A stretch of 23,737 bases of DNA, taken from positions 1 through 23,737 of the forward strand of contig SUPR01000056.1 of the NCBI GenBank assembly GCA_005191425.1, read 5' to 3'. Below, piece by piece: positions 2,476-15,119 of this stretch (position 1 is its first letter; each line of letters begins with the position of its first letter). A model generated the notes under the pieces. The model was given only the letters and a program-made list of their open reading frames with translations. It was not told the DNA's origin and ran no database searches. Source of the stretch: Candidatus Helarchaeota ASGARD archaeon Hel_GB_B. GTDB lineage: Archaea; Asgardarchaeota; Lokiarchaeia; Helarchaeales; HEL-GB-B. A program made the translations under genes and the position numbers.

Positions 2476-3414
2476 ATGAATGAACTATTGGATTTTTTAA
2501 AGGAAGAAGGTAAGCATTTAATTCTATTTGGAGGTAAAGGTGGGGTAGGAAAAACTTCTATAGCTGCTGCTACCGCTATAAAATGTTCCGAAATGGGATT
2601 AAAGACCCTGATTACATCAAGTGACCCAGCTCATTCATTATCAGATGTTTTTGAACAAAAATCAATAATTGGAGGACAAATTGTCGAAGTCTGGAGTAAT
2701 AAAAATCTTTTTGCTTTAGAAACAGATCCAAAAAAAGTATTGGACGAATATAACCATTATCTAGAAGAATTTCCTGAGTTAAAAATATTATTAGGCGAAG
2801 AATTTGAGGAATTTCCTGGTGCAAACGAGGGGTTCGGACTTTTAAACATAATTCGTAGATTTAACAATGATGATTGGGATGTTATTATTGTAGATACTGC
2901 ACCTACTGGACATACGCTTAAATTATTAAGTTTTCCTGATTTCTTGAGTAAGACTGCTATTAAGTTAATAAGAATTCGAGATGTACTTGGCTCATTTGTT
3001 GATAAAATTACTAATTTCTTCCGTAGGAGAAAAGCTGAACGAAAGGATATATCCGAATTTCTTGAAATAGCTAAACAATGGTCCGAAGAGACCCAAAAAG
3101 TTCTGTCCAATGTTGATTTGACCCGCTTTTTTGTTGTAATGATACCTGAATTGTTAAGTATAAATGAAACACAACGATTAATTGCAAGTCTACAAGGATA
3201 CAATATTTCAATCGGCGGAATTTTTGTTAACAAATTTTTTCCAAACAATACTACATGTCCATTCTGTCAAAAAAAGCGTAAACAACAAGATAAAAATTTT
3301 AAAATAATCAAGGAAATTTTTCAAAATTTTTTAATACGACAGATACCCTTCTTTAACGATGAAATTCACGGTCAAATAATGCTCAAAAAGTTAAAAGATA
3401 TATTATTTGAATAA
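2476..3414 (+). CDS. Get3/TRC40/ArsA-family ATPase, single-domain, with C-terminal CxxC
   Basis: P-loop FGGKGGVGKTS, switch I SDPAHSLSD, switch II DTAPTGHT, VVMIPELLSINETQRL, and CPFC. Confidence 0.93.
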   Translation: MNELLDFLKEEGKHLILFGGKGGVGKTSIAAATAIKCSEMGLKTLITSSDPAHSLSDVFEQKSIIGGQIVEVWSNKNLFALETDPKKVLDEYNHYLEEFPELKILLGEEFEEFPGANEGFGLLNIIRRFNNDDWDVIIVDTAPTGHTLKLLSFPDFLSKTAIKLIRIRDVLGSFVDKITNFFRRRKAERKDISEFLEIAKQWSEETQKVLSNVDLTRFFVVMIPELLSINETQRLIASLQGYNISIGGIFVNKFFPNNTTCPFCQKKRKQQDKNFKIIKEIFQNFLIRQIPFFNDEIHGQIMLKKLKDILFE

Positions 3415-3695
3415 AAATACTTAAATTATAATATATTAGCGTTTCAAAATAATTGTTAATTGCTCTGGTTATATAAAAAATAATTTCTATTCCAATAGAA
3501 TAGGTCATAATTATTGCATCAGAAAAATACATTATCTTAAAAATAGTTGGTTAAGATATTGAAATAGAAAACGATAAATATATAATAATAATATATTGCC
3601 TCTAAAAAAGGCGTAATATAAAGGATATAATCAAGTTAAATTTAATGATCGTTTAAAAATCTCTTTTTTATTAATTCTTTTCTTAGAAATTCAAA

Positions 3696-3711
3696 TCGAA
3701 AACTTTATAAA
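3696..3711 (+). promoter_or_regulatory. BRE-like element plus TATA box for the PadR-Hsp20 operon
   Basis: TCGAAAAC followed by TTTATAAA (3704-3711), about 90 bp upstream of the PadR ATG. Confidence 0.55.
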
Positions 3712-3718
3712 TTTTTTA

Positions 3719-3760
3719 GAGCTAACAACTTTGAGTTAACAATTTTGAGCTAACAATATT
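3719..3760 (+). repeat. Three tandem 14-bp direct repeats; candidate operator
   Basis: GAGCTAACAACTTT (3719-3732), GAGTTAACAATTTT (3733-3746), GAGCTAACAATATT (3747-3760). They lie immediately downstream of the TATA box. Confidence 0.9.
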
Positions 3761-3799
3761 CAAAAATTTTATAGAAAACATTTTTTCAGGTAAATAAAG

Positions 3800-4321
3800 A
3801 TGTTCTGGTTTGGTCGCGGAATAGCAAGACAATTTTTAGATAGAGATAAAAGAAAAGCCAGCCCCACTGAATATTTAATCCTTTCTATTTTAAACAATTA
3901 TGGTAATAAATCCGGCCCAGATATAATCAAAATATTATCCTCTCAATTTATGAATATCTGGACTCCAAAAGCAGGGACAATATATCCTATACTTAACAAA
4001 TTGGAATATCGCCAATTTATCAAATCAAGAGGAAATTATCCTAAAATTTATTCGATTACTGAAAAAGGAAAAGAACAGATAAATTTTCTAGCCAGTATTT
4101 TTACGAATGAAATTGATTTTTTCAAAAAATTTGCTAATTTAGTTTGTGGTCATCAATACATTCCCGGTTTAGATCGATTATTACAAACTAATCTTGAAAA
4201 TTATAAAAAGTGGTTAAAAAATGAGCTGAAAACAGTAAATGAAATTCTAAAATTAAAAAAGTCTCAAGCTGATGATGATAACGATGATATCAAAGAAGAT
4301 TATGAAATTCCAATTAAATAA
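3800..4321 (+). CDS. PadR-family transcriptional regulator
   Basis: EYLILSIL...SGPDIIKIL...WTPKAGTIYPILNKLEYRQFI...KIYSITEKGKE is the PadR winged-helix pattern, followed by a C-terminal helix and an acidic tail. Confidence 0.88.
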   Translation: MFWFGRGIARQFLDRDKRKASPTEYLILSILNNYGNKSGPDIIKILSSQFMNIWTPKAGTIYPILNKLEYRQFIKSRGNYPKIYSITEKGKEQINFLASIFTNEIDFFKKFANLVCGHQYIPGLDRLLQTNLENYKKWLKNELKTVNEILKLKKSQADDDNDDIKEDYEIPIK

Positions 4322-4771
4322 ATGGAGGTGATAAAACTGGTAAAATTGGATGATAATGATGAAGATGATAGATATTGGACATGGTTTAAAGATATTTTTT
4401 TCGGTAAAAACTTACCATTTATTGGTATTAGAAATAACTTTATAAATGAAGGTATTCGCAATGGTTTCAAGGAAATTATGAACTGGTTAACCGAGTTTAC
4501 AACCGAATTCATAAATCCTAATATGTTTGATGATGGAAATGAATTAATAATCACTGTTAATACCCCTGGTATTCCAAAAAAAGATTTAAAAATCAAGACC
4601 GATAAATCATCTATCATCATAATAATAAATAAGGATGGTAGAGAAATTAAACGTAAAATAAGATTACCAGTTGAAATTATTCCTGAAAAATCTTATTCTA
4701 AATATAAAGATGGACAATTAAAAATACATCTTTTCAAAAAAAATTCTACCAGCGATATTGAGATAAACTAA
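4322..4771 (+). CDS. Small heat shock protein (Hsp20/alpha-crystallin domain)
   Basis: ELIITVNTPGIPKKDLKIK...IKRKIRLPVEIIPEKSYSKYKDGQLKIHLFK, with a W/F-rich N-terminal arm and C-terminal IEI (IxI) motif. The ATG directly abuts the PadR stop (TAA-ATG). Confidence 0.9.
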   Translation: MEVIKLVKLDDNDEDDRYWTWFKDIFFGKNLPFIGIRNNFINEGIRNGFKEIMNWLTEFTTEFINPNMFDDGNELIITVNTPGIPKKDLKIKTDKSSIIIIINKDGREIKRKIRLPVEIIPEKSYSKYKDGQLKIHLFKKNSTSDIEIN

Positions 4772-4793
4772 TAAATCATATTTACATACATCG

Positions 4794-4848
4794 AAAAAAA
4801 AAAATGGATGAAATTAAAATGGTGTTCATCCATAGCGATAATAATCGC
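4794..4848 (-). terminator. Double hairpin followed by a U-tract on the minus strand; candidate terminator between convergent hsp20 and GH genes
   Basis: Perfect 9-bp inverted repeat ATGGATGAA (4804-4812) / TTCATCCAT (4825-4833). A second stem GCGAT/ATCGC lies at 4835-4848. The A11 run at 4794-4804 reads as U11 right after the hairpin on the minus strand. Confidence 0.5.
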
Positions 4849-5017
4849 CATATAATTATATCTTATTCGATTATTTATTTTTTTCTATAAATTAAATTGG
4901 AATCATAAACGCAGTTTAATTGTATAATTCAATAATTTTAGGGTACAAATAATTTTAAATTAAGAAAATTGTTATAAGTTAAAATAAATTATTTTTATAT
5001 TCTTAATAAATTATAAA

Positions 5018-6046
5018 TTACAGATGGTATTTTCTTTTTAACTCATTGTATACATCACCAATTACATCCCAAACTTTTTTAGGGTTGCTACATGATAAAG
5101 ACATGCCTTCAGCACCTCTAAAACACCAGGTAAAAATAGAATCTACGTTATATTTATCAAAAATTTTAATAGCCTCTTTTAATTCTAATTCTTTTTTTCT
5201 TTGGACTAAAAATCCAAGACACCACAATTGAGAATTAATACCATATTTTTTAGCAATTGATACGGTTTTTTCGGTAAATTTTTCTACATAATTGAGTGAT
5301 TTTCCGAATAATAACCAATATGGGTCTGAAGCAAAAACATCAATTACATCTTTTAAAGAATAAACAAAATTATCCCAATCTGAAATCCCACTTTCTAACG
5401 GCGGAGGATTAAGACATACAATAATTTTTTTGGACGGTGAAATTTCTTTAATCTTTAACGATAAATCTTTTAGAAATTTAATGATGGAATTCTCCTTAAA
5501 TTTAATAACATCATTATCCAATTTAACCGGCATTTCTCTATTATATTCTTGTTTGAAAAGTTTTTGACAAGTGTCGCACCTGCAAGTAAATGAGATTGCA
5601 GATTTTGGTAAATAATAAAAATGCGGTTCATCCCAAAAAAATCCGTCAATAAATTCATATTTACAGACATTTTTAATGGCTTTAAATAAATAATTTTTAA
5701 ATTCGCTAGTATTAAAGCAAACTGCAGCTACTTTATCATGAGTACCTCTTTTATTAGAAATTGACTTTACCTGTCTAAAATCAGTATTTTTGTGTAGAAA
5801 AAAAGACGGCGCTTCTCCTCCAAAAATGCCACCCCACGACCAAAAATTTAGATATACATTGAAATTAAATTCTTCCTTAGCAATATGGGCTATTTTCATA
5901 ATATTCTTTCTCCAAACCTCCCAATCATATTCTGACATCGCGATCAAAACTGAATTACAACCATGTCTTGCCATTTCTTCTAAGTCTATTCTCGCATGGT
6001 CTGGAAATACATTTCCATAATATGCAACTCCTAGTTCCTTTACCAT
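5018..6046 (-). CDS. Glycoside hydrolase-like TIM-barrel protein (GH42/clan-A-like), cytoplasmic
   Basis: GVAYY...DLEEMARHGCNSV, DGFFWDEPH, a CRCDTC Zn-type motif followed by FKQEY, and DPYW. No signal peptide. Confidence 0.65.
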   Translation of the reverse strand: MVKELGVAYYGNVFPDHARIDLEEMARHGCNSVLIAMSEYDWEVWRKNIMKIAHIAKEEFNFNVYLNFWSWGGIFGGEAPSFFLHKNTDFRQVKSISNKRGTHDKVAAVCFNTSEFKNYLFKAIKNVCKYEFIDGFFWDEPHFYYLPKSAISFTCRCDTCQKLFKQEYNREMPVKLDNDVIKFKENSIIKFLKDLSLKIKEISPSKKIIVCLNPPPLESGISDWDNFVYSLKDVIDVFASDPYWLLFGKSLNYVEKFTEKTVSIAKKYGINSQLWCLGFLVQRKKELELKEAIKIFDKYNVDSIFTWCFRGAEGMSLSCSNPKKVWDVIGDVYNELKRKYHL

Positions 6047-6154
6047 ATTTGTATTATTTTATTATTGAAATTAAAGAGTTCCGTTTCAAATGAATTCTAA
6101 TAAATAAACATATTAGAAATATTTATAATTGAAAAAGTTATAACTGGTGAAATA

Positions 6155-6592
6155 ATGGTGAATATAATTAAAAGGTTTAGTGGAAAATATAGTTTTTTAT
6201 CAAATTTTTATCCATGTAAGATAATATATGAAAATATATGTTATCCATCAGTAGAGCATGCATATCAAGCTTCTAAGACTCTTGATATTAATTTAAGAAA
6301 AGAGATCGCCAGTCAAAAAACTCCTGCACTAGCAAAGAAATTAGGACGGGCTATAAAATTGAGGTCTGATTGGGATAGAGTCAAATTATCCATTATGGAA
6401 ACACTAGTAAGACTGAAATTTACAACAAATGAGGAATTGAAAAAGAAGATAATAGAGTTAGAAAATTGTATCTTAATTGAAGGCAATACTTGGGGCGATA
6501 CCTTCTGGGGTGTATATAATGGCAATGGAAAAAACCACTTAGGAAAAATATTAATGAAAGTTAGAGATGATCTAATTAGAAAAAATATATAG
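6155..6592 (+). CDS. NADAR family protein (YbiA-like N-glycosidase)
   Basis: FLSNFY, YPSVEHAYQASK, TPALAKKLGR, DWDRVK, KF, LIEGNTWGDTFWGV, GKNHLGKILMKVR. A GGTGA SD-like site lies upstream. Confidence 0.92.
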   Translation: MVNIIKRFSGKYSFLSNFYPCKIIYENICYPSVEHAYQASKTLDINLRKEIASQKTPALAKKLGRAIKLRSDWDRVKLSIMETLVRLKFTTNEELKKKIIELENCILIEGNTWGDTFWGVYNGNGKNHLGKILMKVRDDLIRKNI

Positions 6593-6633
6593 CTATAACC
6601 AAGATTTAGATAGTAATATTCCGTGATATTAAT

Positions 6634-7341
6634 ATGAAGATGAAAATATTAGCCATTGGGGCGCATCCTGATGATTTAGAAATATTAGCGGGTGGTACTT
6701 TATTAAAATATCATGATTTAGGCTATGAAATCAATTTATTAATAGTTACTGATGGGTCTGCTGGGCATGAACAAATTATTCCCGAAAAATTGAGAAAAAT
6801 TAGGTATGATGAAGCTAAAAAGACCGCTGAATTTTTAAAAGCCGGCTTTTTTTGGCTAGGAATTAGAGATGAATTCATTTTTGCAAATGAAGATTTAAGA
6901 ATGAAAGTAATCGATGTAATCCGGAAAGTATCCCCTGATGTTATCATTACTCATTCTCCTAACGATTATCATCCAGACCATGTAAACCTCAGTAAGTTAG
7001 TACTTGACGCTAGTTTTGTTAGCACATTACCAAATATTAAAACAAATAATCCAAATAACCAAATAGTAGTCCCCATTTTTTATATGGACACACTTACTGG
7101 AGTAAATTTCATCCCTGACTATTATGTTGATATTTCAGATCAATTTGAAAGAAAAATTAAGATATTACAAAACCATAAATCTCAAATTCAGTGGCTAAAA
7201 GACCATGACGATTTAGATATAATTGAACTTGTTAAAATATCAGCAAAATTTAGAGGTTTTCAATGTGGTGTTTCTTATGCTGAATGTTTTAAACATACAA
7301 ATGTCTGGCCCAGATTAAGACCCGAACGACTTCTGCCATAA
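6634..7341 (+). CDS. PIG-L/LmbE-family N-acetyl-sugar deacetylase
   Basis: AIGAHPDDLE...GGTL...TDGSAG...RYDE, THSPNDYHPDH and C-terminal YAECF. Confidence 0.92.
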   Translation: MKMKILAIGAHPDDLEILAGGTLLKYHDLGYEINLLIVTDGSAGHEQIIPEKLRKIRYDEAKKTAEFLKAGFFWLGIRDEFIFANEDLRMKVIDVIRKVSPDVIITHSPNDYHPDHVNLSKLVLDASFVSTLPNIKTNNPNNQIVVPIFYMDTLTGVNFIPDYYVDISDQFERKIKILQNHKSQIQWLKDHDDLDIIELVKISAKFRGFQCGVSYAECFKHTNVWPRLRPERLLP

Positions 7342-7385
7342 TAAGTAAAAAAAAGTAAGAATAATTGATTTAAGTAATTTCAGAA

Positions 7386-9167
7386 TTATTTTACTTCTAT
7401 TTCAAGTTCAGGAGCTACATATTCTCCAGTACCCTTAATAGTATACCCTAAATTTAGCTTTTCGTTAGGTTGAACTAGTGGAAAACGCCATATTAGCTCA
7501 GTACCGTCCTCTAGATCTTTTATTTCTGGTTTAATATCCTCGGGTTCCCAGGACATAAGATCGAAATTTTTAGGAATAAAATCTTTAATGACGATATTTT
7601 CCAGTACTATTTCACCCTTATTATGGAAAACAACGGGAATTTTATACTGTCCTTCTTCACTTAATGGCTGAATTTGCTTAAATGCACGTATTCGTCTTTG
7701 TACATATTTTATCTTAATTTCAATATCATCTAATTTATTTTCAACAGGTGGTCCAATCGGGAGCGTATTTGCAAAAATTTCTACAGGACATAAATAGTTT
7801 TTCGTAGGTGGCGGATTCCAAGCTTGAATTGGGTATTTAATAATTAACCTACTATTCGGTTTAAATCCGCCAAATAATTTATCCATATTTGTAATTTTAT
7901 GCACTATTAAATGTTCATTTTCGAGATTATCGTCCTCTGGAGTAATTTCATAATAAATTCCTTCTTTAATTTCCCGGTCATCTAAAAAATATTCTATAGT
8001 ACCTTTTTCAGGTGGTCTAAAATGAGCTGGTATTCTATCTTTTAAAATAATTTCATTTAATGATGCCGAACCAATATTATCTGCCAAAATTTCTATATTT
8101 AAATCATTTTTCGTGTTGGCTAATATTTCATTTGGTTCTATTTGTTTTTGAATTTTAACAGCTGCGATAGGAATTTTATTTTCCTCTATTTCTAAACTTC
8201 CAAAAATTGTTTTCTGAACGATATAATCAACAGAAAATTCGTAATCTTTTTTAAATTTAGGAATATTATCGGATTGTGCCACAAAATCTTTACTCCAAGA
8301 ATTATTTATTTCAATAATTTGATCTGGATTTTCTTCTATTATTAATTCTTGTACATTATTTTTAATTTGGAATATTTTTATTCTTTTTAATAAAACATCT
8401 AAATTACTGGAATTTTCAAATTCAGCTGTACAATCCCATTTAAATGGTGTGTCCATATTTTCTTCGACATCTATGGCAAATAAATTATCTGTATTAGCTT
8501 CTACCCTTGCATCTAATTTGGTTCGTATTGCATTTTCAACTTTATATGTCGCCATAATTTTACCTGCACCATATGGCTCTGGCATTTCTGGAGTAAAACC
8601 TGTTTTAATTGTCACACCAAGACTTTTTCCAGGATCAATTTTATCAATTTTCCAAATAATATTTCTTGTCCCAGAGTCAAAAGTTAATGATTCTAATGTG
8701 GTTGTTGGATTTAAAATTGGGTCATCAAAATATTCTGGTAATTCTTTAGTTATTATTACATTTCTAATAATTGAATTTGATTTATTTTTAACAAATAATT
8801 TAAAGGCAGTTGGACTCCTCTTCCCGATAATTCCAGCCCAATTTGGTGCATCTATCTCATAATATGTGTCTATCTCTTCTGAAATATCTAGTACTGGCTC
8901 TTTTATAAAATCATCATTAACTTTATATTCACGAGACCACTGTTCACTAGGTTTTACTTCATTTATAATAAATTTATCGTTTTCCAGATTAGTTGGGTTT
9001 ATATTGGTTAAAAATAATTTTGCATTCCAAATTCTAGACGTTGAAGGATTGATTATTGTAAATTTTCCTGAAAGGTTAATCTTTTTTACCTGCCCAGTAT
9101 TGTCTAAATTACATGATTCATTCTCGATTAAATCAATAATTATCTTATTTTTAATTTCATCTTGCAT
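7386..9167 (-). CDS. Cytoplasmic multi-beta-sandwich protein with an N-terminal mu-homology-like (adaptin mu/delta-COP C-terminal) region and two C-terminal DUF11-like sandwiches
   Basis: Strong GGAGG SD upstream; no signal peptide or TM helix. IIIDLIENESCNLDNTGQVKKINLSGKFTI follows the MHD opening pattern, and IIWKIDKIDPG and KIMATYKV match subdomain B and the return strand. The unit NxG...NIxIKDxIP recurs. Confidence 0.55.
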   Translation of the reverse strand: MQDEIKNKIIIDLIENESCNLDNTGQVKKINLSGKFTIINPSTSRIWNAKLFLTNINPTNLENDKFIINEVKPSEQWSREYKVNDDFIKEPVLDISEEIDTYYEIDAPNWAGIIGKRSPTAFKLFVKNKSNSIIRNVIITKELPEYFDDPILNPTTTLESLTFDSGTRNIIWKIDKIDPGKSLGVTIKTGFTPEMPEPYGAGKIMATYKVENAIRTKLDARVEANTDNLFAIDVEENMDTPFKWDCTAEFENSSNLDVLLKRIKIFQIKNNVQELIIEENPDQIIEINNSWSKDFVAQSDNIPKFKKDYEFSVDYIVQKTIFGSLEIEENKIPIAAVKIQKQIEPNEILANTKNDLNIEILADNIGSASLNEIILKDRIPAHFRPPEKGTIEYFLDDREIKEGIYYEITPEDDNLENEHLIVHKITNMDKLFGGFKPNSRLIIKYPIQAWNPPPTKNYLCPVEIFANTLPIGPPVENKLDDIEIKIKYVQRRIRAFKQIQPLSEEGQYKIPVVFHNKGEIVLENIVIKDFIPKNFDLMSWEPEDIKPEIKDLEDGTELIWRFPLVQPNEKLNLGYTIKGTGEYVAPELEIEVK

Positions 9168-9312
9168 TAAAAAACCTCCGTCTTTAATTACATAAATGTA
9201 CGGATTTTTCTAAAAGAAATAGTTAAAAATTTAAAAAAATAGTTTTTCTAAATTCCTTACCTATTAAAATCTATGAAATATTTATTATTATTTTTTGTCT
9301 AAAGAATTCTAA

Positions 9313-9708
9313 TCATTTATTTGGTGGAATTATTATCTTCTTGTAAATAGAATATCCTTTATCTTTACAAAACTGATAAAACATATCCAAATTTATTATA
9401 ATATCATAATTAGTAATTATAGTAAGCGTATAATCGTCTTCTATTCTAGCTATCTTGTATTTTGCTAGCTGACATTCAATCTCATTTAAATCTTCCGGCT
9501 TTCCTATTAATTGGAGATAAATCTCCTTCATTTCATCTCCAATCAGTTCAATCTCGTATTCATAACTTTTATTTTTAGGACTACTAGGCTTTTTACAAGG
9601 TGGAGTCGCAAAAATTGATTTCCAAAATCCAAAATTCCAACTCTCTTTTCCATAATACAACAAATATTTTCTATGTTCAATCATATTTATTCTTACCAAA
9701 TTATTCAT
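9313..9708 (-). CDS. Hypothetical protein
   Basis: 131-aa ORF with ATG start, co-oriented 48 bp downstream of the propeller gene. No family recognised. Confidence 0.6.
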   Translation of the reverse strand: MNNLVRINMIEHRKYLLYYGKESWNFGFWKSIFATPPCKKPSSPKNKSYEYEIELIGDEMKEIYLQLIGKPEDLNEIECQLAKYKIARIEDDYTLTIITNYDIIINLDMFYQFCKDKGYSIYKKIIIPPNK

Positions 9709-9756
9709 TTAATAATATTATTTGGGAATTTTAAAATTTTATTGCAAATTTATAAA

Positions 9757-10677
9757 TTATTCAATTTTTAGTGTGGACAATCCTATTTTTTCTACTCCGA
9801 AAAACCATCCATTTCTTGCATTATAATAGAGCCAATAATTATTTTTATATTTTCTAATATCTAACTGATAAACAAACGACTTTTTCCAACCTTTTGTAGG
9901 AAAAATAATTGGCTGTTTAAAGCACTCATTAAAGTGAATCCCGTCCTTAGACATTAATAGTAATATACTTGAGCGTGATTTTGATTTTTTATCTTTAAAA
10001 ATTCCATTATTAAAGCCCAAAAAAGTCTCATTTTCTTTTAAATATATTACCTTCATTGCTCCTGCCCCTAAATTTCTAAAAGTATTATCTTTTTCTGGGT
10101 AAATTATTGGCATTGCCCTCTTTTTATATGGCCCAAAAATATTTTTAGAAATAGCAATCCCAATATATTTCGGTTCGTAAAATAGACAATCTTTAAGAAA
10201 GACCAGTCCTGCTGAATAATAAAGATAATAGCGCCCTTTATGCTTCAATAAACACGGATTACCATTATTTGGATTATATTTTCCCTCCCAAGATAATGTA
10301 GGGGTTAATATATCTTTTGGCTTACTCCAATTTGATAAGTCTTTTGATTCCCTAATTGATATCACGGATTTATTAAAAATGTTCAACAATCTTTCATATA
10401 AAAGATAATACTTATCGTTTTCTTTGAAAAGAAATGGTCTCATACCTGGGAATGTTTTATCAAAACTGTTTTGCCAGGTGATCCCATCTTTTGATTTAAA
10501 ATGATTAATTCCCGTGATGATACTATGGGCAAATAAATGCCATAAGCCATCAGGCGACTCTTCACTTGTAATAAATGTGGGGTCTGCTATTATCCAATCT
10601 GGAGGTCTGGGCTTTATCAACGGATTTCTGGGGTCGTCCCTCCATTTTTTCCATTTGCCAAGAAATTTAACGTCCAT
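9757..10677 (-). CDS. Five-bladed beta-propeller glycoside hydrolase (GH43/GH130/GH32-like)
   Basis: NPLI, ADPTF, WHLF, GNPCLLKHKGRYYLYYSAG, IGIAISKNIFGPY, YWLYYNA...IGL. A GGTGA SD lies upstream. Confidence 0.75.
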   Translation of the reverse strand: MDVKFLGKWKKWRDDPRNPLIKPRPPDWIIADPTFITSEESPDGLWHLFAHSIITGINHFKSKDGITWQNSFDKTFPGMRPFLFKENDKYYLLYERLLNIFNKSVISIRESKDLSNWSKPKDILTPTLSWEGKYNPNNGNPCLLKHKGRYYLYYSAGLVFLKDCLFYEPKYIGIAISKNIFGPYKKRAMPIIYPEKDNTFRNLGAGAMKVIYLKENETFLGFNNGIFKDKKSKSRSSILLLMSKDGIHFNECFKQPIIFPTKGWKKSFVYQLDIRKYKNNYWLYYNARNGWFFGVEKIGLSTLKIE

Positions 10678-10771
10678 GTTTTAATTTCACCTAAATATTT
10701 TATTAAATAAAATCATTTAAAATCATAATTCATAAAAGTAATCTTAAATAATATCGTTAATTCTTTAACGG

Positions 10772-10955
10772 ATATTTCTAGATTTGCTAATGAAAAAGAC
10801 ATCCCTTCTTCTCACCTGAAACTCCAAGTAAATATAGAATCTACGGTATGTTTAATAAAAATTTTAAGAAATTCTTTTTAATTCTAATTCTTTTTACATA
10901 GGGCATTGAAATCCAAGATACTATGATTGAGAGTTAACGCCACATTTTTTAGCAA
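10772..10955 (-). pseudogene. Degenerate fragment homologous to the 3' end of the GH-like gene at 5018-6046
   Basis: Translates as AKKCGVNSQS*YLGFQCPM*KELELK../..KHTVDSIFTWSFR*EEGMSFS, versus AKKYGINSQLWCLGFLVQRKKELELK...KYNVDSIFTWCFRGAEGMSLS encoded at about 5075-5256. Several stops and small indels. Confidence 0.9.
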
Positions 10956-10976
10956 GTAATGTTCTTATTTAAGTCA

Positions 10977-11438
10977 TTAATCCTCGGCTGGTCCTGCATA
11001 TATTACTATTAAATCATCTTCTAACAACTCTTCAAGTCTGGATTTACTCATTTCCCATCCAAGTTTAACAAAAAACGCGTCAATGAAATCGATCCACCCA
11101 CCTCCAGAATAAACTTGAACAGTTACATCAATCGAGCTGATTTGATAGCCACTACGGCAATCATCTGGTATATTGTCCAAAGTAATATGATATCCTTCAT
11201 AATTTTCAAAATCTTTCGAATCTATTATTCTATCTGGCGGGCAATTAATAAATCGATTATTAATGAATTTTTTATCCAAGGTGTTAGCAAGATCAGCTAT
11301 GAATGGATTATTAAGATCCATTCCTAATTTTTTCAACACATCTGAAAAATTTAAATTATATTTTAACGCTAGCACTAATGGGGCGCTGGAACTACTGGAA
11401 TTTGTTACAAATCCATCAATTATTTTTAATATTCTCAT
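10977..11438 (-). CDS. Hypothetical protein with N-terminal GFVTNSSSSS motif
   Basis: MRILKIIDGFVTNSSSSSAPLVLAL. Its ATG overlaps the reconstructed LRR stop (ATGA). Confidence 0.75.
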   Translation of the reverse strand: MRILKIIDGFVTNSSSSSAPLVLALKYNLNFSDVLKKLGMDLNNPFIADLANTLDKKFINNRFINCPPDRIIDSKDFENYEGYHITLDNIPDDCRSGYQISSIDVTVQVYSGGGWIDFIDAFFVKLGWEMSKSRLEELLEDDLIVIYAGPAED

Positions 11439-12120
11439 CTTTTGACCACTCTATTTGAAAAATCTTCTAAAAATTTTATTTTTTCTTTTGTATTCATATC
11501 TATCATACCTAAAAATTCATTATCTAACAGATTATATCATAGAAATAAACGTCTTAGGTTTTTTAAATTTTTTAATGAAAAAGGTACTTTTTTAAGTTTG
11601 TTCTTATTAAGCATTAAGATTTTTAAATTTATTAAATTTCCAATTTCTTTAGGTATATACTCTAATTTATTATCGTTTAGATACAATTTTTTTAATTTAA
11701 TTAAGTTTTTTATCTCGTTAGGTATTTTCGTTAGTTCATTATTATTCAAAAAACAAATTAAAAGTTTATCTAATAAACAGAAATCTGGTACTAAATTAAT
11801 TATTTTATTCTTTGATAGATATAAACGCTCTAATGAAGGAAAAAATTTAATTGCACTAGATATTTCCTTCAAATTATTAGAATGTAAATCAAGTTTCTTT
11901 AAATTTTGAAGGGACGCATGTAATTCAGGTAATGATTCAATCTCATTTCTTCTAAATCTAATACCACTAAACTTTGTAATTCTGAGATTTCTACGGATAT
12001 TTCTTGGAGTTGGTTCCATTTACAATATAGAAATTTAAGGTTCTTACAGTTGCTTATTGGTTTAAGAATCTTTTTAAGGTAATTATTATTGCAGGTTCCC
12101 AAAAATAATCATCTCTTAAA
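11435..12120 (-). pseudogene. Leucine-rich repeat protein, disrupted by one frameshift and in-frame TGA codons
   Basis: Track ORFs 11899-12102 and 11537-12019 join into one LxxLxLxxNxL array across a 1-nt deletion near 11952 (LVVLDL / RNEIESLP). The TGA at 11537-11539 sits inside LFL*YNLL, and the frame continues to a TGA at 11435-11437. A further TGA is at 12109-12111. Confidence 0.85.
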
Positions 12121-12296
12121 ATAGTAAAAAGTGTAATAAATTATCAAACCTAATTAATATAATTTATTTCAATGGAATTGAAGTAGGGACGAATAAAATA
12201 AAAGATAAAGTATGAGTAAACAATAAAGAAAAAGGTAATAATAGAGTAAGCATTAATAATAATGCAAAATATTAATAAAAATCTTATAAATTCACT

Positions 12297-13433
12297 TTAA
12301 AAAATTTTTAGTTTTCCACCTTTTTTATCACATGCAACAATTGACGGGTCTAAAGGACAGCCACCCCAACAGCTTTTAAAAAAGTTGCAAGTTTTACATC
12401 CAATATATCTATAATTAGTTAATTTATTTCTAAAATCAACAAAAAGTTCTGATTGCCATATTTTTTTAAATGAATTATTTTTTAAATCTACACCCTGTTG
12501 GTCCTGCATAAAAGAGCATGGTTTTACTTTTAAATTCCAATCAATATAGCAACTATATCTACTCCCATTACACCCATCAATTGATTCCGCTAAAAATGGC
12601 ATATCTTTTAATAAAGGGGCTGAACAAGCGTCAAAATTTAATTTAAAATCATATTTTTCTTTTAGAGCCAATATTTCAAAAATCTTTAATAATAAAAGTT
12701 TTGTATCTTGCTGTGCTAATACTTCCTTCCTTAAATTTTTTCCACGTCCCATTGGCTTAAACAATAATAATACGATACCATTTACGCCCAGCTTCAGATA
12801 TTTTTCTACTATTAAATTAAGATTTTGTAATCTAGATTTTAATAATACGATATGTACATTAGCTTGTATACCATAGTCCAATAATTTTTTAGCAGATACT
12901 AATGTTTCTTTATATAAATTCTCCATATAACTTACTGCAACTGCTCCACAATATTTTTTTGATGCCTCCAATATTTCATTTGTTAATACTGTTCCGTTTG
13001 TTGTGTAGTTCGGGACTATGTCTCCATCTAATCTTAACTTTCTAAGAATCTCCGCGAAATTTGGGTGCAATGTTGGCTCGCCGCCGCCTAAAGCAATCTG
13101 GAGCACCCTAGCTTCCTTCATCTTTTTTAATAAGATTTCAAAATCGTCCAAAGATAAAAATTTCCCATCATTTACTGGCAATGAATCCATATAACAATAT
13201 GAACAATGAAGATTACATTTATTTGTAAGCGATAAATCTATCAAAACTGGAGTATTTGTAATTATATTCGGCCCTGATGCAAATTTTATCTCCGGATCTA
13301 ATAAAAATTTTAACTTTTTCGGTGAATCTGATTTAACTAATATGTTTAAAAATTTCAATTCATCTTCGGATAACTTCTTTTTGTTAGCTAACTTCAATAA
13401 AACATTAAAACCTTCAATATCCACCATTGACAT
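12297..13433 (-). CDS. Radical SAM enzyme with C-terminal SPASM domain; true start probably further upstream (frame open to 13523)
   Basis: CNLHCSYC (CxxxCxxC), GGGEPTLHP, VPNYTTNG. The SPASM region reads CNGSRYSCYIDWNLKVKPCSF...CKTCNFFKSCWGGC...C. Confidence 0.92.
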   Translation of the reverse strand: MSMVDIEGFNVLLKLANKKKLSEDELKFLNILVKSDSPKKLKFLLDPEIKFASGPNIITNTPVLIDLSLTNKCNLHCSYCYMDSLPVNDGKFLSLDDFEILLKKMKEARVLQIALGGGEPTLHPNFAEILRKLRLDGDIVPNYTTNGTVLTNEILEASKKYCGAVAVSYMENLYKETLVSAKKLLDYGIQANVHIVLLKSRLQNLNLIVEKYLKLGVNGIVLLLFKPMGRGKNLRKEVLAQQDTKLLLLKIFEILALKEKYDFKLNFDACSAPLLKDMPFLAESIDGCNGSRYSCYIDWNLKVKPCSFMQDQQGVDLKNNSFKKIWQSELFVDFRNKLTNYRYIGCKTCNFFKSCWGGCPLDPSIVACDKKGGKLKIF

Positions 13434-13931
13434 AGAACCATATTTCTGATCAAAAATAACCCCACCAAATTGCTCATTACGGACAATTATTTTTTGTTCT
13501 ATCTCAATTTCACCTATATTCTCTCATTAAAAGGTTTAATACTAAAATATATACTACACTCCAAAAGGTCTTCTAATTTATTTCTGCAATATAATATCTC
13601 AGTATTGTTTTAATTTTTATTATTTTTTTGAATACTAATCTACTTTTTAATTATAAATATATATTTTTCCATTTTCTTATCATAATTAACTTCTGAATTC
13701 ATTAATTCGATTATCGTTAATTTAAAATGGTTTTAAATAATTTTTTAAATTCCATTAATCGGGGACTTAAAGTTATGATTTGAAGATGACCATTCTAAAT
13801 TAGAGAAATTATGAACGAGCAAATTATTAAGTGATAATAAAATAAAGATATTAAATCAAAATTACAATATAATTTAAATTTAATACAAGATAAATTCAAA
13901 TTAATTAACATGATTTTATTCTTTAAAGGCA

Positions 13932-15119
13932 ATGGCAGATAAAATGAGTGATTTACCGAAACTAAATAAAGACGAGAAAAAAGTTTTTAGTATAGTAAAG
14001 GAGTTTTCGACTAAAAAATCTAATTTTACAATAGATGAACTTACAAAATATTGTAAGCAAAATACTAAATTTTCTAATAAAAAGATATATTCAATTTTAA
14101 AAGACTTCATCAATAAAAAAATCATAATCGAAGAGAATTTGTTTAATAAAAGTCAAATTTTAGACATCCAAGAAAGATATAAAATTTATGATTATATCTC
14201 TAAAAATCCCGGCATGGAATATAATGCTCTTCATGAAAAATTCAAATTACATCCTAAAGTTTTCAAATGGCATATAGAAATGCTCAAGAATTTTGGTTAT
14301 ATTAGAGAAAAAAGTTATCTTTTTTATAAAATATATTATCATAAATATTTTCCGAAAGAAAATGAGATTAGAATTTTTATTATGAGAGACCCTGATATTT
14401 ATAGGATTTATCTTCTTTTAATGAATCAGCAATTAGACCCTGAATCATTATCAAAAATTCTTGACATAAAATTGTCTCTGATTAAATTTTATCTTAATAA
14501 AATGGTAGATGCCGGCATTATTAAATATGAAAATGGAAAAACTTTTTCAATTAATAAAGAAAAGCAAGATTTTTTTAAAAATTATTTTGATTTAAAAATT
14601 TCCAATAATTTAAAAGAACGATTATTAGATTTTAATGAACTTAAAAAATTGCTATATTTAATATTAATGAACAAAGAAACCGGGATTATGATTTACCAAT
14701 ATAATTTTATCGAATCTAATATTGACGCTGATTTGGTGAGTGGTTTTTTAACAGCAATTCAACAATTTGGTAGTGAATTAAACAAGAAAGCATGTTCTAT
14801 AAGTAAAATTACATATAAAGGTTTTGAAATTAATATTGAAGATGGTAATTGGGCACGAGCCGCTTTAATATTGGACGGAAAAAGTTCTGACTCACTTAAT
14901 AAAAGACTTTCATCTTTTATATCTTTTTATGAAAATGAATACAAAGAACATTTTGCTCAATGGACTGGGGATATATCTATATTTCATGATTCAAAATTAA
15001 TAATTGAGGACTTTTTTTCTCCAAAATCTGAAAATGAGAAAAGTTTAATAGATAACGGAAATATCGGGGCGGTAAATATTTTAAAGGACGAAAATAAAAA
15101 TAAAAATCAAATAAATTAG
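13932..15119 (+). CDS. Three winged-helix domains fused to a C-terminal Asgard-type longin-like domain
   Basis: The HTH-like units end in KKIIIE, NFGYIRE and DAGIIKY. The C-terminal region reads LYLILMNKETGIMIY...DADLVSGFLTAIQQFGSEL...ISKITYKGFEI...WTGDISIF. Confidence 0.75.
   Translation: MADKMSDLPKLNKDEKKVFSIVKEFSTKKSNFTIDELTKYCKQNTKFSNKKIYSILKDFINKKIIIEENLFNKSQILDIQERYKIYDYISKNPGMEYNALHEKFKLHPKVFKWHIEMLKNFGYIREKSYLFYKIYYHKYFPKENEIRIFIMRDPDIYRIYLLLMNQQLDPESLSKILDIKLSLIKFYLNKMVDAGIIKYENGKTFSINKEKQDFFKNYFDLKISNNLKERLLDFNELKKLLYLILMNKETGIMIYQYNFIESNIDADLVSGFLTAIQQFGSELNKKACSISKITYKGFEINIEDGNWARAALILDGKSSDSLNKRLSSFISFYENEYKEHFAQWTGDISIFHDSKLIIEDFFSPKSENEKSLIDNGNIGAVNILKDENKNKNQIN

Follow-up and report, generated by a model that had tools for sequence, protein, structure and literature searches.

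Several radical S-adenosylmethionine (rSAM) enzymes with a SPASM domain act on gene-encoded peptides or proteins, and they are the closest described relatives of the locus reported here: an rSAM/SPASM enzyme gene and the gene of a 153-aa protein with a conserved N-terminal tag, carried on a 23,737-nt stretch of DNA from Candidatus Helarchaeota ASGARD archaeon Hel_GB_B (contig SUPR01000056.1, positions 1 to 23,737; hereafter the window). In SuiB/StrB, an N-terminal domain resembling a RiPP recognition element (RRE; RiPP, a peptide made by the ribosome and modified after translation) is combined with an rSAM barrel and a SPASM domain with two auxiliary clusters, and one enzyme serves an adjacently encoded ribosomal substrate bearing a conserved recognition sequence. 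That substrate, SuiA, has 22 aa in all, an N-terminal leader followed by a C-terminal core that is released, and SuiB makes a Lys-Trp C-C bond. Anaerobic sulfatase-maturing enzymes (anSME, AtsB) are rSAM/SPASM enzymes that mature whole proteins by oxidising Ser or Cys in a short conserved motif, and the QhpD/QhpC pair is a precedent for an rSAM/SPASM enzyme modifying a complete protein that stays in a complex. Triceptide synthases install an aromatic-to-C-beta crosslink on an Omega1-X2-X3 motif (PMC11499958), and FxsB-type enzymes are encoded beside variable proteins with a conserved terminal peptide and beside STAND NTPases (PMC7159879).

The window enzyme resembles SuiB/StrB in its predicted architecture and in the adjacent encoding of its candidate substrate, with an identity of 16-17% only; here, however, the conserved element stands at the extreme N-terminus of folded proteins, and it has no Lys/Trp motif. 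anSME is a structural neighbour (Foldseek E about 1e-11, TM about 0.6), but the enzyme scores 44 against a cut-off of 349 for sulfatase_rSAM (TIGR03942), the tag lacks the (C/S)-x-(P/A)-x-R motif of anSME substrates, the tagged partners are not sulfatases and no sulfatase lies nearby, and anSME has no RRE. Among triceptide synthases (XyeB, ChlB, HaaB), ChlB is a structural neighbour and the conserved F-[V/I]-[T/S/A] of the tag fits Omega1-X2-X3; the motifs of these systems are C-terminal or internal in short precursors, whereas ours is N-terminal on proteins, and no triceptide family model is among the enzyme's best NCBIfam matches. For QhpD the score is 39.6 against a cut-off of 453 (quino_hemo_SAM), and QhpC crosslinks need Cys, which the tag lacks. 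The nearest published concept is FxsA/FxsB, which shares a STAND NTPase context with one of our bacterial loci (L055); we rejected it as a prior description, its FxSxx peptide having a different sequence and lying at the other, C-terminal protein end (Kaur et al. 2020, PMC7159879). Nor is this strictly a RiPP system: folded proteins take the place of short leader/core precursors, and neither in the window nor in most Asgard loci does a protease or transporter/exporter stand beside the pair, an A24 peptidase being present at a paralogous locus only. The original prediction, made from the letters of this DNA, held that no known pathway name fits; likewise, our searches of family models (Pfam, NCBIfam), defence catalogues (PADLOC) and literature returned no name or description for the enzyme-tag pair.

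From sequence comparison and structure modelling, we consider the rSAM/SPASM enzyme and the 153-aa protein to be, probably, enzyme and substrate of an undescribed protein-maturation module. What appears new, judging from the sequences, is an Asgard subfamily in which the enzyme carries a predicted RRE, the tag is longer and a single body family is dedicated to it, together with its coupling to leucine-rich repeat (LRR) proteins and a series of decay states in the window and its relatives. If the proposal is right, a new radical-chemistry protein modification would operate through a short portable recognition sequence on hundreds of unrelated proteins of phages, bacteria and archaea. The co-variation of the RRE enzyme subtype with the longer tag provides direct comparative evidence for recognition. 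The repeated LRR fusion and coupling concerns the closest prokaryotic relatives of eukaryotes; the natural decay states (intact, LRR lost, tag lost) reveal which parts are dispensable; and a portable tag for site-specific radical modification could serve as a tool.

Locus organization and the tagged protein

The window stems from an archaeon of low GC content (about 28%), and its nearest named proteins come from metagenome-assembled genomes (MAGs) of Candidatus Helarchaeota. Three co-oriented features, as originally claimed, are present on the minus strand: the rSAM/SPASM open reading frame (ORF), LRR-coding DNA and the 153-aa ORF. The enzyme gene lies 860 nt upstream of the tagged gene on the same strand and carries all three signatures on which the original prediction had drawn (GGGEPTLHP, PNYTTNG and CGAVAVS), which are real and kept across the enzyme family. 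The pair comprises the following features:

12297..13433, minus strand: rSAM/SPASM enzyme gene, read from the first ATG (378 aa), with Pfam and PDB matches and an AlphaFold2 (AF2) model
13434..13514, minus strand: in-frame upstream extension, predicted to encode the first two beta-strands of the RRE-like N-terminal domain, without a canonical start codon
10977..11438, minus strand: gene of the tagged 153-aa protein, which consists of the N-terminal tag and a small alpha/beta body
11391..11438, minus strand: codons 1-16 of that gene, the invariant tag MRILKIIDGFVTNSSS, from the family alignment

The 153-aa protein starts with MRILKIIDGFVTNSSSSSA and belongs to a small family, 57-160 aa in length, that forms about 36 clusters when grouped at 90% identity and whose named members all come from Asgard MAGs: Helarchaeota, Lokiarchaeota/Promethearchaeota and Hermodarchaeota. 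M1, K5, F10, N13 and S14-16 are invariant in the family, and T12 nearly so. Conservation within the Asgard family extends beyond the 16-residue tag to the first ~45 residues, while the rest of the protein is 17-50% identical to the window copy, except in the orthologue from its own genus (81%). Modelled with the family alignment (AF2, pLDDT 84), the protein has a confident alpha/beta body (residues 16-153, with pLDDT >90 over most of 20-150) and a pLDDT <50 for residues 1-14, the invariant part. The gene is under purifying selection (dN/dS 0.12 against the orthologue in L054, a related Helarchaeota contig) and is single-copy in its own genome. Across the open frames of those 3.54 Mb, F[VI]TNSSS appears a single time, and the motif goes far beyond what chance would give.

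The tagged proteins match no Pfam, NCBIfam, PHROGs or PADLOC model. With the Asgard body, PHROGs gave matches only at E values of at least 0.016, and tblastn against phage sequences gave nothing useful; by sequence, the body family is therefore absent from phages. Fold searches with the 153-aa model gave no significant match, with Foldseek E values of at least 0.45 in the PDB, VIA Z scores of at most 3.8 (generic ferredoxin/ACT-like) and nothing in AFDB clusters or BFVD. Fold matches in the Atlas (TM 0.51-0.58, to unnamed 134-137-aa phage/bacterial clusters) and a language-model look-alike search (score 0.87) are leads only. One metagenomic protein of 181 aa (P0011), without a tag, matches only the C-terminal half of the body (residues 92-152, E=1.6e-9), so that this C-terminal part (motif YSGGGW…) also exists alone.

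Linkage of tag and enzyme across genomes

The original prediction held that proteins of bacteria and phages repeatedly show this motif and are often encoded near rSAM genes bearing these signatures, and sampling from the enzyme side reproduced this. We selected 80 metagenome and 68 viral loci by enzyme similarity alone, located their rSAM genes with a hidden Markov model and searched for [FYWH][VIL][TSA]NSS within the first residues after a start codon, the start codons of tagged ORFs being chosen by spacing. An N-terminally tagged ORF was present in 66 of the 80 metagenome loci (within 400 nt of the enzyme in 63, always on the same strand) and in 61 of the 68 viral loci, with up to six per locus; the sampled loci are related to one another, so these counts overstate independence. 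Most of the 14 tagless metagenome loci have <1 kb of flank on at least one side. Expressed as a rule, M-(3-8 residues)-F-[VI]-T-N-S-S-S beside a signature rSAM holds in 127/148 enzyme-picked loci, and the window conforms to it with residues 1-16. As a background, the same loose scan of its own 3.54-Mb genome gave three matches, one of them real; a motif scan of genome contigs confirmed 3 loci only.

Other samples agree. Starting from the tag, an rSAM neighbour of the clade was found in L001, L002/3/5, L010/11, L029, L031 and L034, and one enzyme is often surrounded by several tagged paralogues (six in L001, three in L002, six in L035). A tagged ORF also stands next to the enzyme on a bacterial chromosome (L055), in Methanobacterium (L056) and in another Asgard class (L051), directly abutting the enzyme gene in L055 and L056. 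In a set of 400 Asgard species genomes, members of the enzyme clade (E<1e-80) are present in G000, G126, G132, G176, G196 and G213, and these six are exactly the genomes with strong tag-family matches.

The core F[VI]TNSSS stands at the head of 266 distinct ORFs that neighbour homologous rSAMs; the search pattern itself fixes N-S-S, and only positions outside [FYWH][VIL][TSA]NSS count as free observations. The tagged partners range from 60 to 1150 aa (median 137 aa) and are folded, which bears out the earlier expectation of whole proteins rather than a short RiPP. A short tag with F at residue 7, MK[IV][KR]xDF[VI]TNSSS[ST]S[FY], heads 228 distinct ORFs, and a long tag with F at residue 10, M[RK]I[LI]KIxDGF[VI]TNSSS, heads 29. 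Tag length co-varies with enzyme type: the long RRE-type enzyme accompanies the long tag in 11 loci and the short enzyme the short tag in 114, with 4 exceptions that are probably start-codon or alignment calls. When the tag is removed, Asgard bodies align with bacterial or phage bodies at an hhalign probability <1%, and bacterial and phage bodies do not align with each other; by sequence comparison, the N-terminal peptide is the sole element that travels with the enzyme across groups.

The enzyme-tag link is thus strong. Unrelated genes could also be brought together by hitch-hiking in mobile or defence islands, and many of the loci do lie in phages or beside defence-type genes, such as an Avs2-like STAND gene with Cas1/PolB in L055 and an MmeI-type methylase in L001. 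We regard this explanation as very improbable: adjacency on the same strand is seen in 63/80 independently sampled loci, the loci span archaea, bacteria and phages, the subtypes of enzyme and tag vary together, and the phyletic match in 400 genomes is perfect.

Some of these contexts deserve description. L055 belongs to a 1.9-Mb bacterial contig and, at 3313-14410, encodes an Avs2-like STAND NTPase (PADLOC 5.6e-26), a 140-aa tagged protein and a short-form rSAM, with Cas1 and a family-B DNA polymerase following on the far side; the context resembles a casposon or a defence island. L035 (G254:C134:24000-43999) resembles phage DNA, includes a tail-sheath gene and was binned with an Asgard genome; it may be an archaeal virus or a binning contaminant; its MKIKxDFVTNSSS proteins, three in tandem (121-122 aa) and three further ones (140-193 aa), surround a C-terminally truncated, twitch-like rSAM. 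A BRCT-like gene lies directly upstream of a clade rSAM with no adjacent tagged gene at L049:8166-8405 (G196:C3) and at L057:5982-6941 (Odinarchaeota). In the Odinarchaeota locus, a degenerate tag (…GFIANSSG…) is found in a 163-aa ORF (L057:4834-5325), and a small Arf/Ras-type GTPase follows the enzyme.

The radical SAM enzyme

The enzyme matches the Pfam families Radical_SAM (PF04055, 1.4e-17) and SPASM (PF13186, 5.7e-7). C100, C104 and C107 (CX3CX2C) and GGGEP are invariant in alignment A9, and the rSAM barrel is modelled at pLDDT >90 (AF2). The SPASM cysteines C297, C315, C333, C373, C376, C382, C386 and C395 are likewise invariant (A5/A9); some phage or short forms (L035, P0144) are reduced to a twitch-like form. 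Modelled with its upstream extension, the window enzyme reaches pLDDT 93.6 and pTM 0.92, the N-terminus folding into strands 9-14, 17-22 and 27-31 and helices 33-43 and 50-59 at pLDDT >90. The best PDB match of the family profile is SuiB (E=1.6e-19), followed by SkfB, PqqE, anSME and CteB; the profile aligns from position 3, N-terminal strands included (…ILRNExFGG… against SuiB 27 DILFRLEKFGG). Foldseek likewise ranks SuiB (E=1.5e-19, TM 0.70/0.65), SkfB and CteB at the top, and the extension sequence IIVRNEQFGGVIF aligns with the RRE strands of SuiB. Pfam PqqD gives no match in the window enzyme. On profile and model evidence, the enzyme is probably of the RRE-rSAM-SPASM, peptide- or protein-modifying kind.

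The enzyme tree separates two groups of homologues, each with 100/100 support. The Asgard clade (Helarchaeota, Lokiarchaeota, Hermodarchaeota, Hodarchaeales and Odinarchaeota) consists of enzymes of ~400 aa, 40-88% identical, with an extra ~75-aa N-terminal domain; the short forms (340-360 aa, 30-42% identical) occur in bacteria, Methanobacterium, other Asgard lineages and phages. The window enzyme is under purifying selection (dN/dS 0.12 against the same-genus orthologue). Its frame is open up to 13523, the upstream stop being at 13524-13526, and the upstream 27 codons (13434-13514) are still open and conserved. The start codon of the extension, TTG in a genome of the same genus (G126), is ATA in the window, with no indel; judging from this sequence, the window enzyme may miss part of its recognition domain.

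The original prediction expected the enzyme to fall outside the cofactor-type SPASM families, and this is where it falls: scores are below the NCBIfam cut-offs for NirJ2 (87.6/500) and NirJ, MftC (71.8/265), AhbD (70.1/500) and AhbC, PqqE (56.5/381) and the W-cofactor maturase (70.5/380), as well as for anSME, and no pqq, mft or heme-d1 genes are among its neighbours in the window. A prokaryotic viperin was also considered and rejected: NF038283 scores 50.6 against a cut-off of 180, the PADLOC pVip match covers the core only, and a full SPASM is present.

These comparisons bear on a different view of the small proteins, as accessory subunits or carriers of an rSAM enzyme acting on a small molecule (nucleotide, cofactor or lipid), the Ser-rich N-terminus then being a ligand-binding loop. 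The rSAM core does show weak matches to viperin, NirJ2, AhbD and MoaA models, and a beta-strand with a Ser/Thr-rich loop is generally able to bind phosphates. We nonetheless find such a role improbable. Scores for viperin, NirJ2 and other such families are far under their cut-offs; the architecture is a full SPASM plus a predicted RRE, with peptide maturases as top structural neighbours; up to six different tagged proteins per enzyme, including LRR proteins of 400-1100 aa, fit poorly with a fixed subunit; and the tag lies outside the predicted fold.

Proposed maturation reaction

From the anatomy of the locus, the class of the enzyme, the conservation of the tag and its genomic linkage, we infer a binding mode, a modification site and a chemistry. 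The first ~16 residues of the small protein would form a flexible N-terminal handle. The enzyme would bind this handle, in the Asgard clade probably through its RRE-like N-terminal domain and as an added beta-strand, and the 5'-deoxyadenosyl radical would then abstract a hydrogen within the [F]-[V/I]-[T]-N-S-S-S core, leaving a covalent change. The likeliest change would be a -2 Da event: either an aromatic-to-C-beta crosslink on the F-V-T (Omega1-X2-X3) triad, as made by SuiB or triceptide synthases, or oxidation of a serine, as by anSME. The product would be a matured whole protein, with no peptide released. Since tagged proteins in Asgard archaea come either as fusions with LRR proteins or translationally coupled to giant ones, their modified N-terminus would probably work within LRR-protein complexes.

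That the tag is covalently modified seems to us the better bet. Granted such a change, we would give a cyclophane-type link about a third of the weight and serine oxidation a lower share, other chemistry taking the remainder; the natural variants F-V-S and F-V-A keep a C-beta hydrogen. A wider reading, possible though somewhat doubtful, is that this enzyme family installs a novel covalent mark (for example a Phe-Thr cyclophane or a serine-derived aldehyde) on a portable ~13-16-residue tag at the extreme N-terminus of whole proteins, common to phages, bacterial defence islands and Asgard archaea; the Asgard form would have gained the RRE and been wired to giant LRR proteins as a new post-translational switch in LRR-based sensing or conflict machinery.

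Several observations speak against modification of the tag by the paired enzyme. Clade enzymes occur with no tag gene in view (G196:C3 in L049; G387), and tagged genes occur far from any enzyme (L006-9, L032, L033). A profile of the N-terminal domain alone found no match in a PDB search, the disorder that AF2 predicts for the tag is based on a 17-row alignment, and in the window the enzyme has no canonical start for its RRE strands and the LRR partner is dead. Finally, the tag could be a docking element only: as a leader-like recognition element, it would guide the enzyme to a residue outside the tag, in the same protein or in a third one that this protein brings along, for instance the LRR partner. 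SuiB and other RiPP maturases recognise a leader segment and modify a core segment distinct from it; in the Asgard family the first ~45 residues, not 16 only, are conserved; and LRR proteins are fused or coupled to the tagged proteins. We judge this docking role unlikely, although it is the most probable of the alternatives considered here. Bodies are unrelated across bacteria, phages and archaea, so that the enzyme would have no conserved second site to act on, and the invariant positions of the tag include abstractable C-beta hydrogens beside the only invariant aromatic residue.

Decay of the LRR gene in the window

The DNA between the two genes of the pair contains the remains of a much larger gene:

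12098..12200, no strand: deletion scar separating the LRR remnant from the rSAM 3' flank, where homology to L054 breaks
11435..12102, minus strand: pseudogene remnant, 3' end of a giant LRR protein gene (1464 aa in L054)
11949..11950, minus strand: 1-nt deletion (frameshift) site in the LRR remnant, from the alignment to L054
11537..11539, minus strand: TGA nonsense codon within the LRR remnant, where the intact orthologue reads GGA

In L054 the order is rSAM 3' end, intact 1464-aa all-LRR gene and 82%-identical orthologue of the tagged gene. Window positions 12439-12201 match L054 3-242, positions 12097-10981 match L054 4050-5166, and nothing else matches; from this gap in homology (L054 242 to 4050) it follows that ~3.7 kb of the LRR gene has been deleted in the window. 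The remnant is 85% identical at the DNA level to the last ~660 nt of the intact L054 gene. It is read in two overlapping frames (11899-12102 and 11537-12019) because of a 1-nt deletion between 11950 and 11949 (L054, GAAGGAAAT; window, GAA-GAAAT), and Pfam LRR_4 and LRR_8 match both pieces. Past the in-frame TGA at 11537-11539, the frame runs on for 33 codons to its final stop, a TGA (11435-11437) that overlaps the ATG (11436-11438) of the 153-aa gene as ATGA. On this comparison the window LRR is a dead 3' remnant, no longer a gene.

The stop/start overlap from which the original prediction derived translational coupling is therefore real, and the same ATGA overlap joins the LRR and tagged genes in L054; since the frame is broken by the frameshift, the TGA and the ~3.7-kb 5' loss, coupling is ancestral and cannot operate in the window. 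It is intact in L054 and, at a paralogous locus, in L006 and L007. Recoding of TGA (code 4/25) was ruled out as an explanation: the orthologue has GGA, and the same gene carries the frameshift and the 3.7-kb deletion. Stop codons across 22 window ORFs are TAA in 18, TAG in 3 and TGA in 1, an extreme usage. The genome has 861 long frames delimited by TAA/TAG; in 547 of them in-frame TGA is absent and in 270 it lies near an end only (817/861), and TGA is a genuine stop codon genome-wide.

A different state is found in G126, where an intact 402-aa enzyme gene with a TTG start (L048:10928-13025 = G126:C17) is directly followed by a metallo-beta-lactamase (MBL)-fold gene. In L054 the same MBL-fold gene sits after the tagged gene, and its abutment on the enzyme gene in G126 therefore implies that the LRR and tagged genes were lost from that locus. 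At a second G126 locus, a 1384-aa LRR gene overlaps a paralogous tagged gene (54% identical), and evidently the enzyme can also serve tagged proteins whose genes lie elsewhere.

Such decay raises the question of whether the cassette in the window genome is itself a remnant with no current function, a view to which we assign a low probability. The LRR gene has suffered a 3.7-kb deletion, a frameshift and a nonsense codon, ATA has replaced the TTG start of the enzyme, the sister species no longer has LRR and tag genes at the same locus, and other gene fossils flank the locus. Against this, the enzyme and tag ORFs are intact with dN/dS of about 0.12 versus their orthologues, the catalytic cysteines are all kept, the 27 upstream codons stay open and conserved, and ATA and ATT are permitted rare starts in table 11. 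With its LRR partner decayed and the canonical enzyme start lost, the module in this genome may be running in a reduced form.

LRR proteins at Asgard loci

These genomes contain many LRR genes, on the order of a dozen or more per 3.5-4 Mb, and the LRR link at tagged loci is far tighter than this frequency would give. Tag, body and LRR are fused in one protein in P0017/L031 (473 aa), L001 (>424 aa) and L058 (780 and 666 aa); in L054 and L006/7 the tagged gene has its start in overlap with a giant LRR gene; and LRR genes adjoin the pair in L002, L034 and L059. These fusions and couplings constitute Rosetta-stone-type evidence, which suggests that the small body and the LRR proteins cooperate in the Asgard clade. 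The idea of the LRR protein as a partner or scaffold thus finds support in Asgard relatives, though not in the window, where the LRR is a pseudogene remnant. The link is limited to the Asgard clade and is not a trait of the bacterial and phage versions.

At the paralogous locus, a gene for an A24 prepilin/preflagellin-type peptidase follows the pair of giant LRR and tagged genes (L006:6104-6958, L007:4433-5287, L009:2822-3676). It is present in every contig of that locus, and the Asgard tag (…DG|F…) is loosely like a class III signal cleavage site. A prepilin-type signal (…G|F…) was considered for the tag because of this peptidase, and rejected as a general reading: residue -1 is Asp in 192/228 short tags. 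It is also disfavoured by the structural model, in which the tag appears to run into a soluble alpha/beta body.

A second recurrent neighbour at Lokiarchaeial tag/rSAM loci is a ~150-aa domain starting with …EFKVNxYLxLKLE…. The domain stands at the head of LRR proteins and occurs in two copies in giant proteins of 1942-1947 aa, and neither the proteins that carry it nor the giants have a Pfam or PADLOC match. The giants have a C-terminal region of ~690 aa in common with proteins of 880 aa and 702 aa. The genes concerned lie at L001:8399-14242, L029:10473-16301, L002:3988-6630 and 8403-10511, L059:6867-14076, L031:523-1889, L033:2929-3720 and L036:18134-19342.

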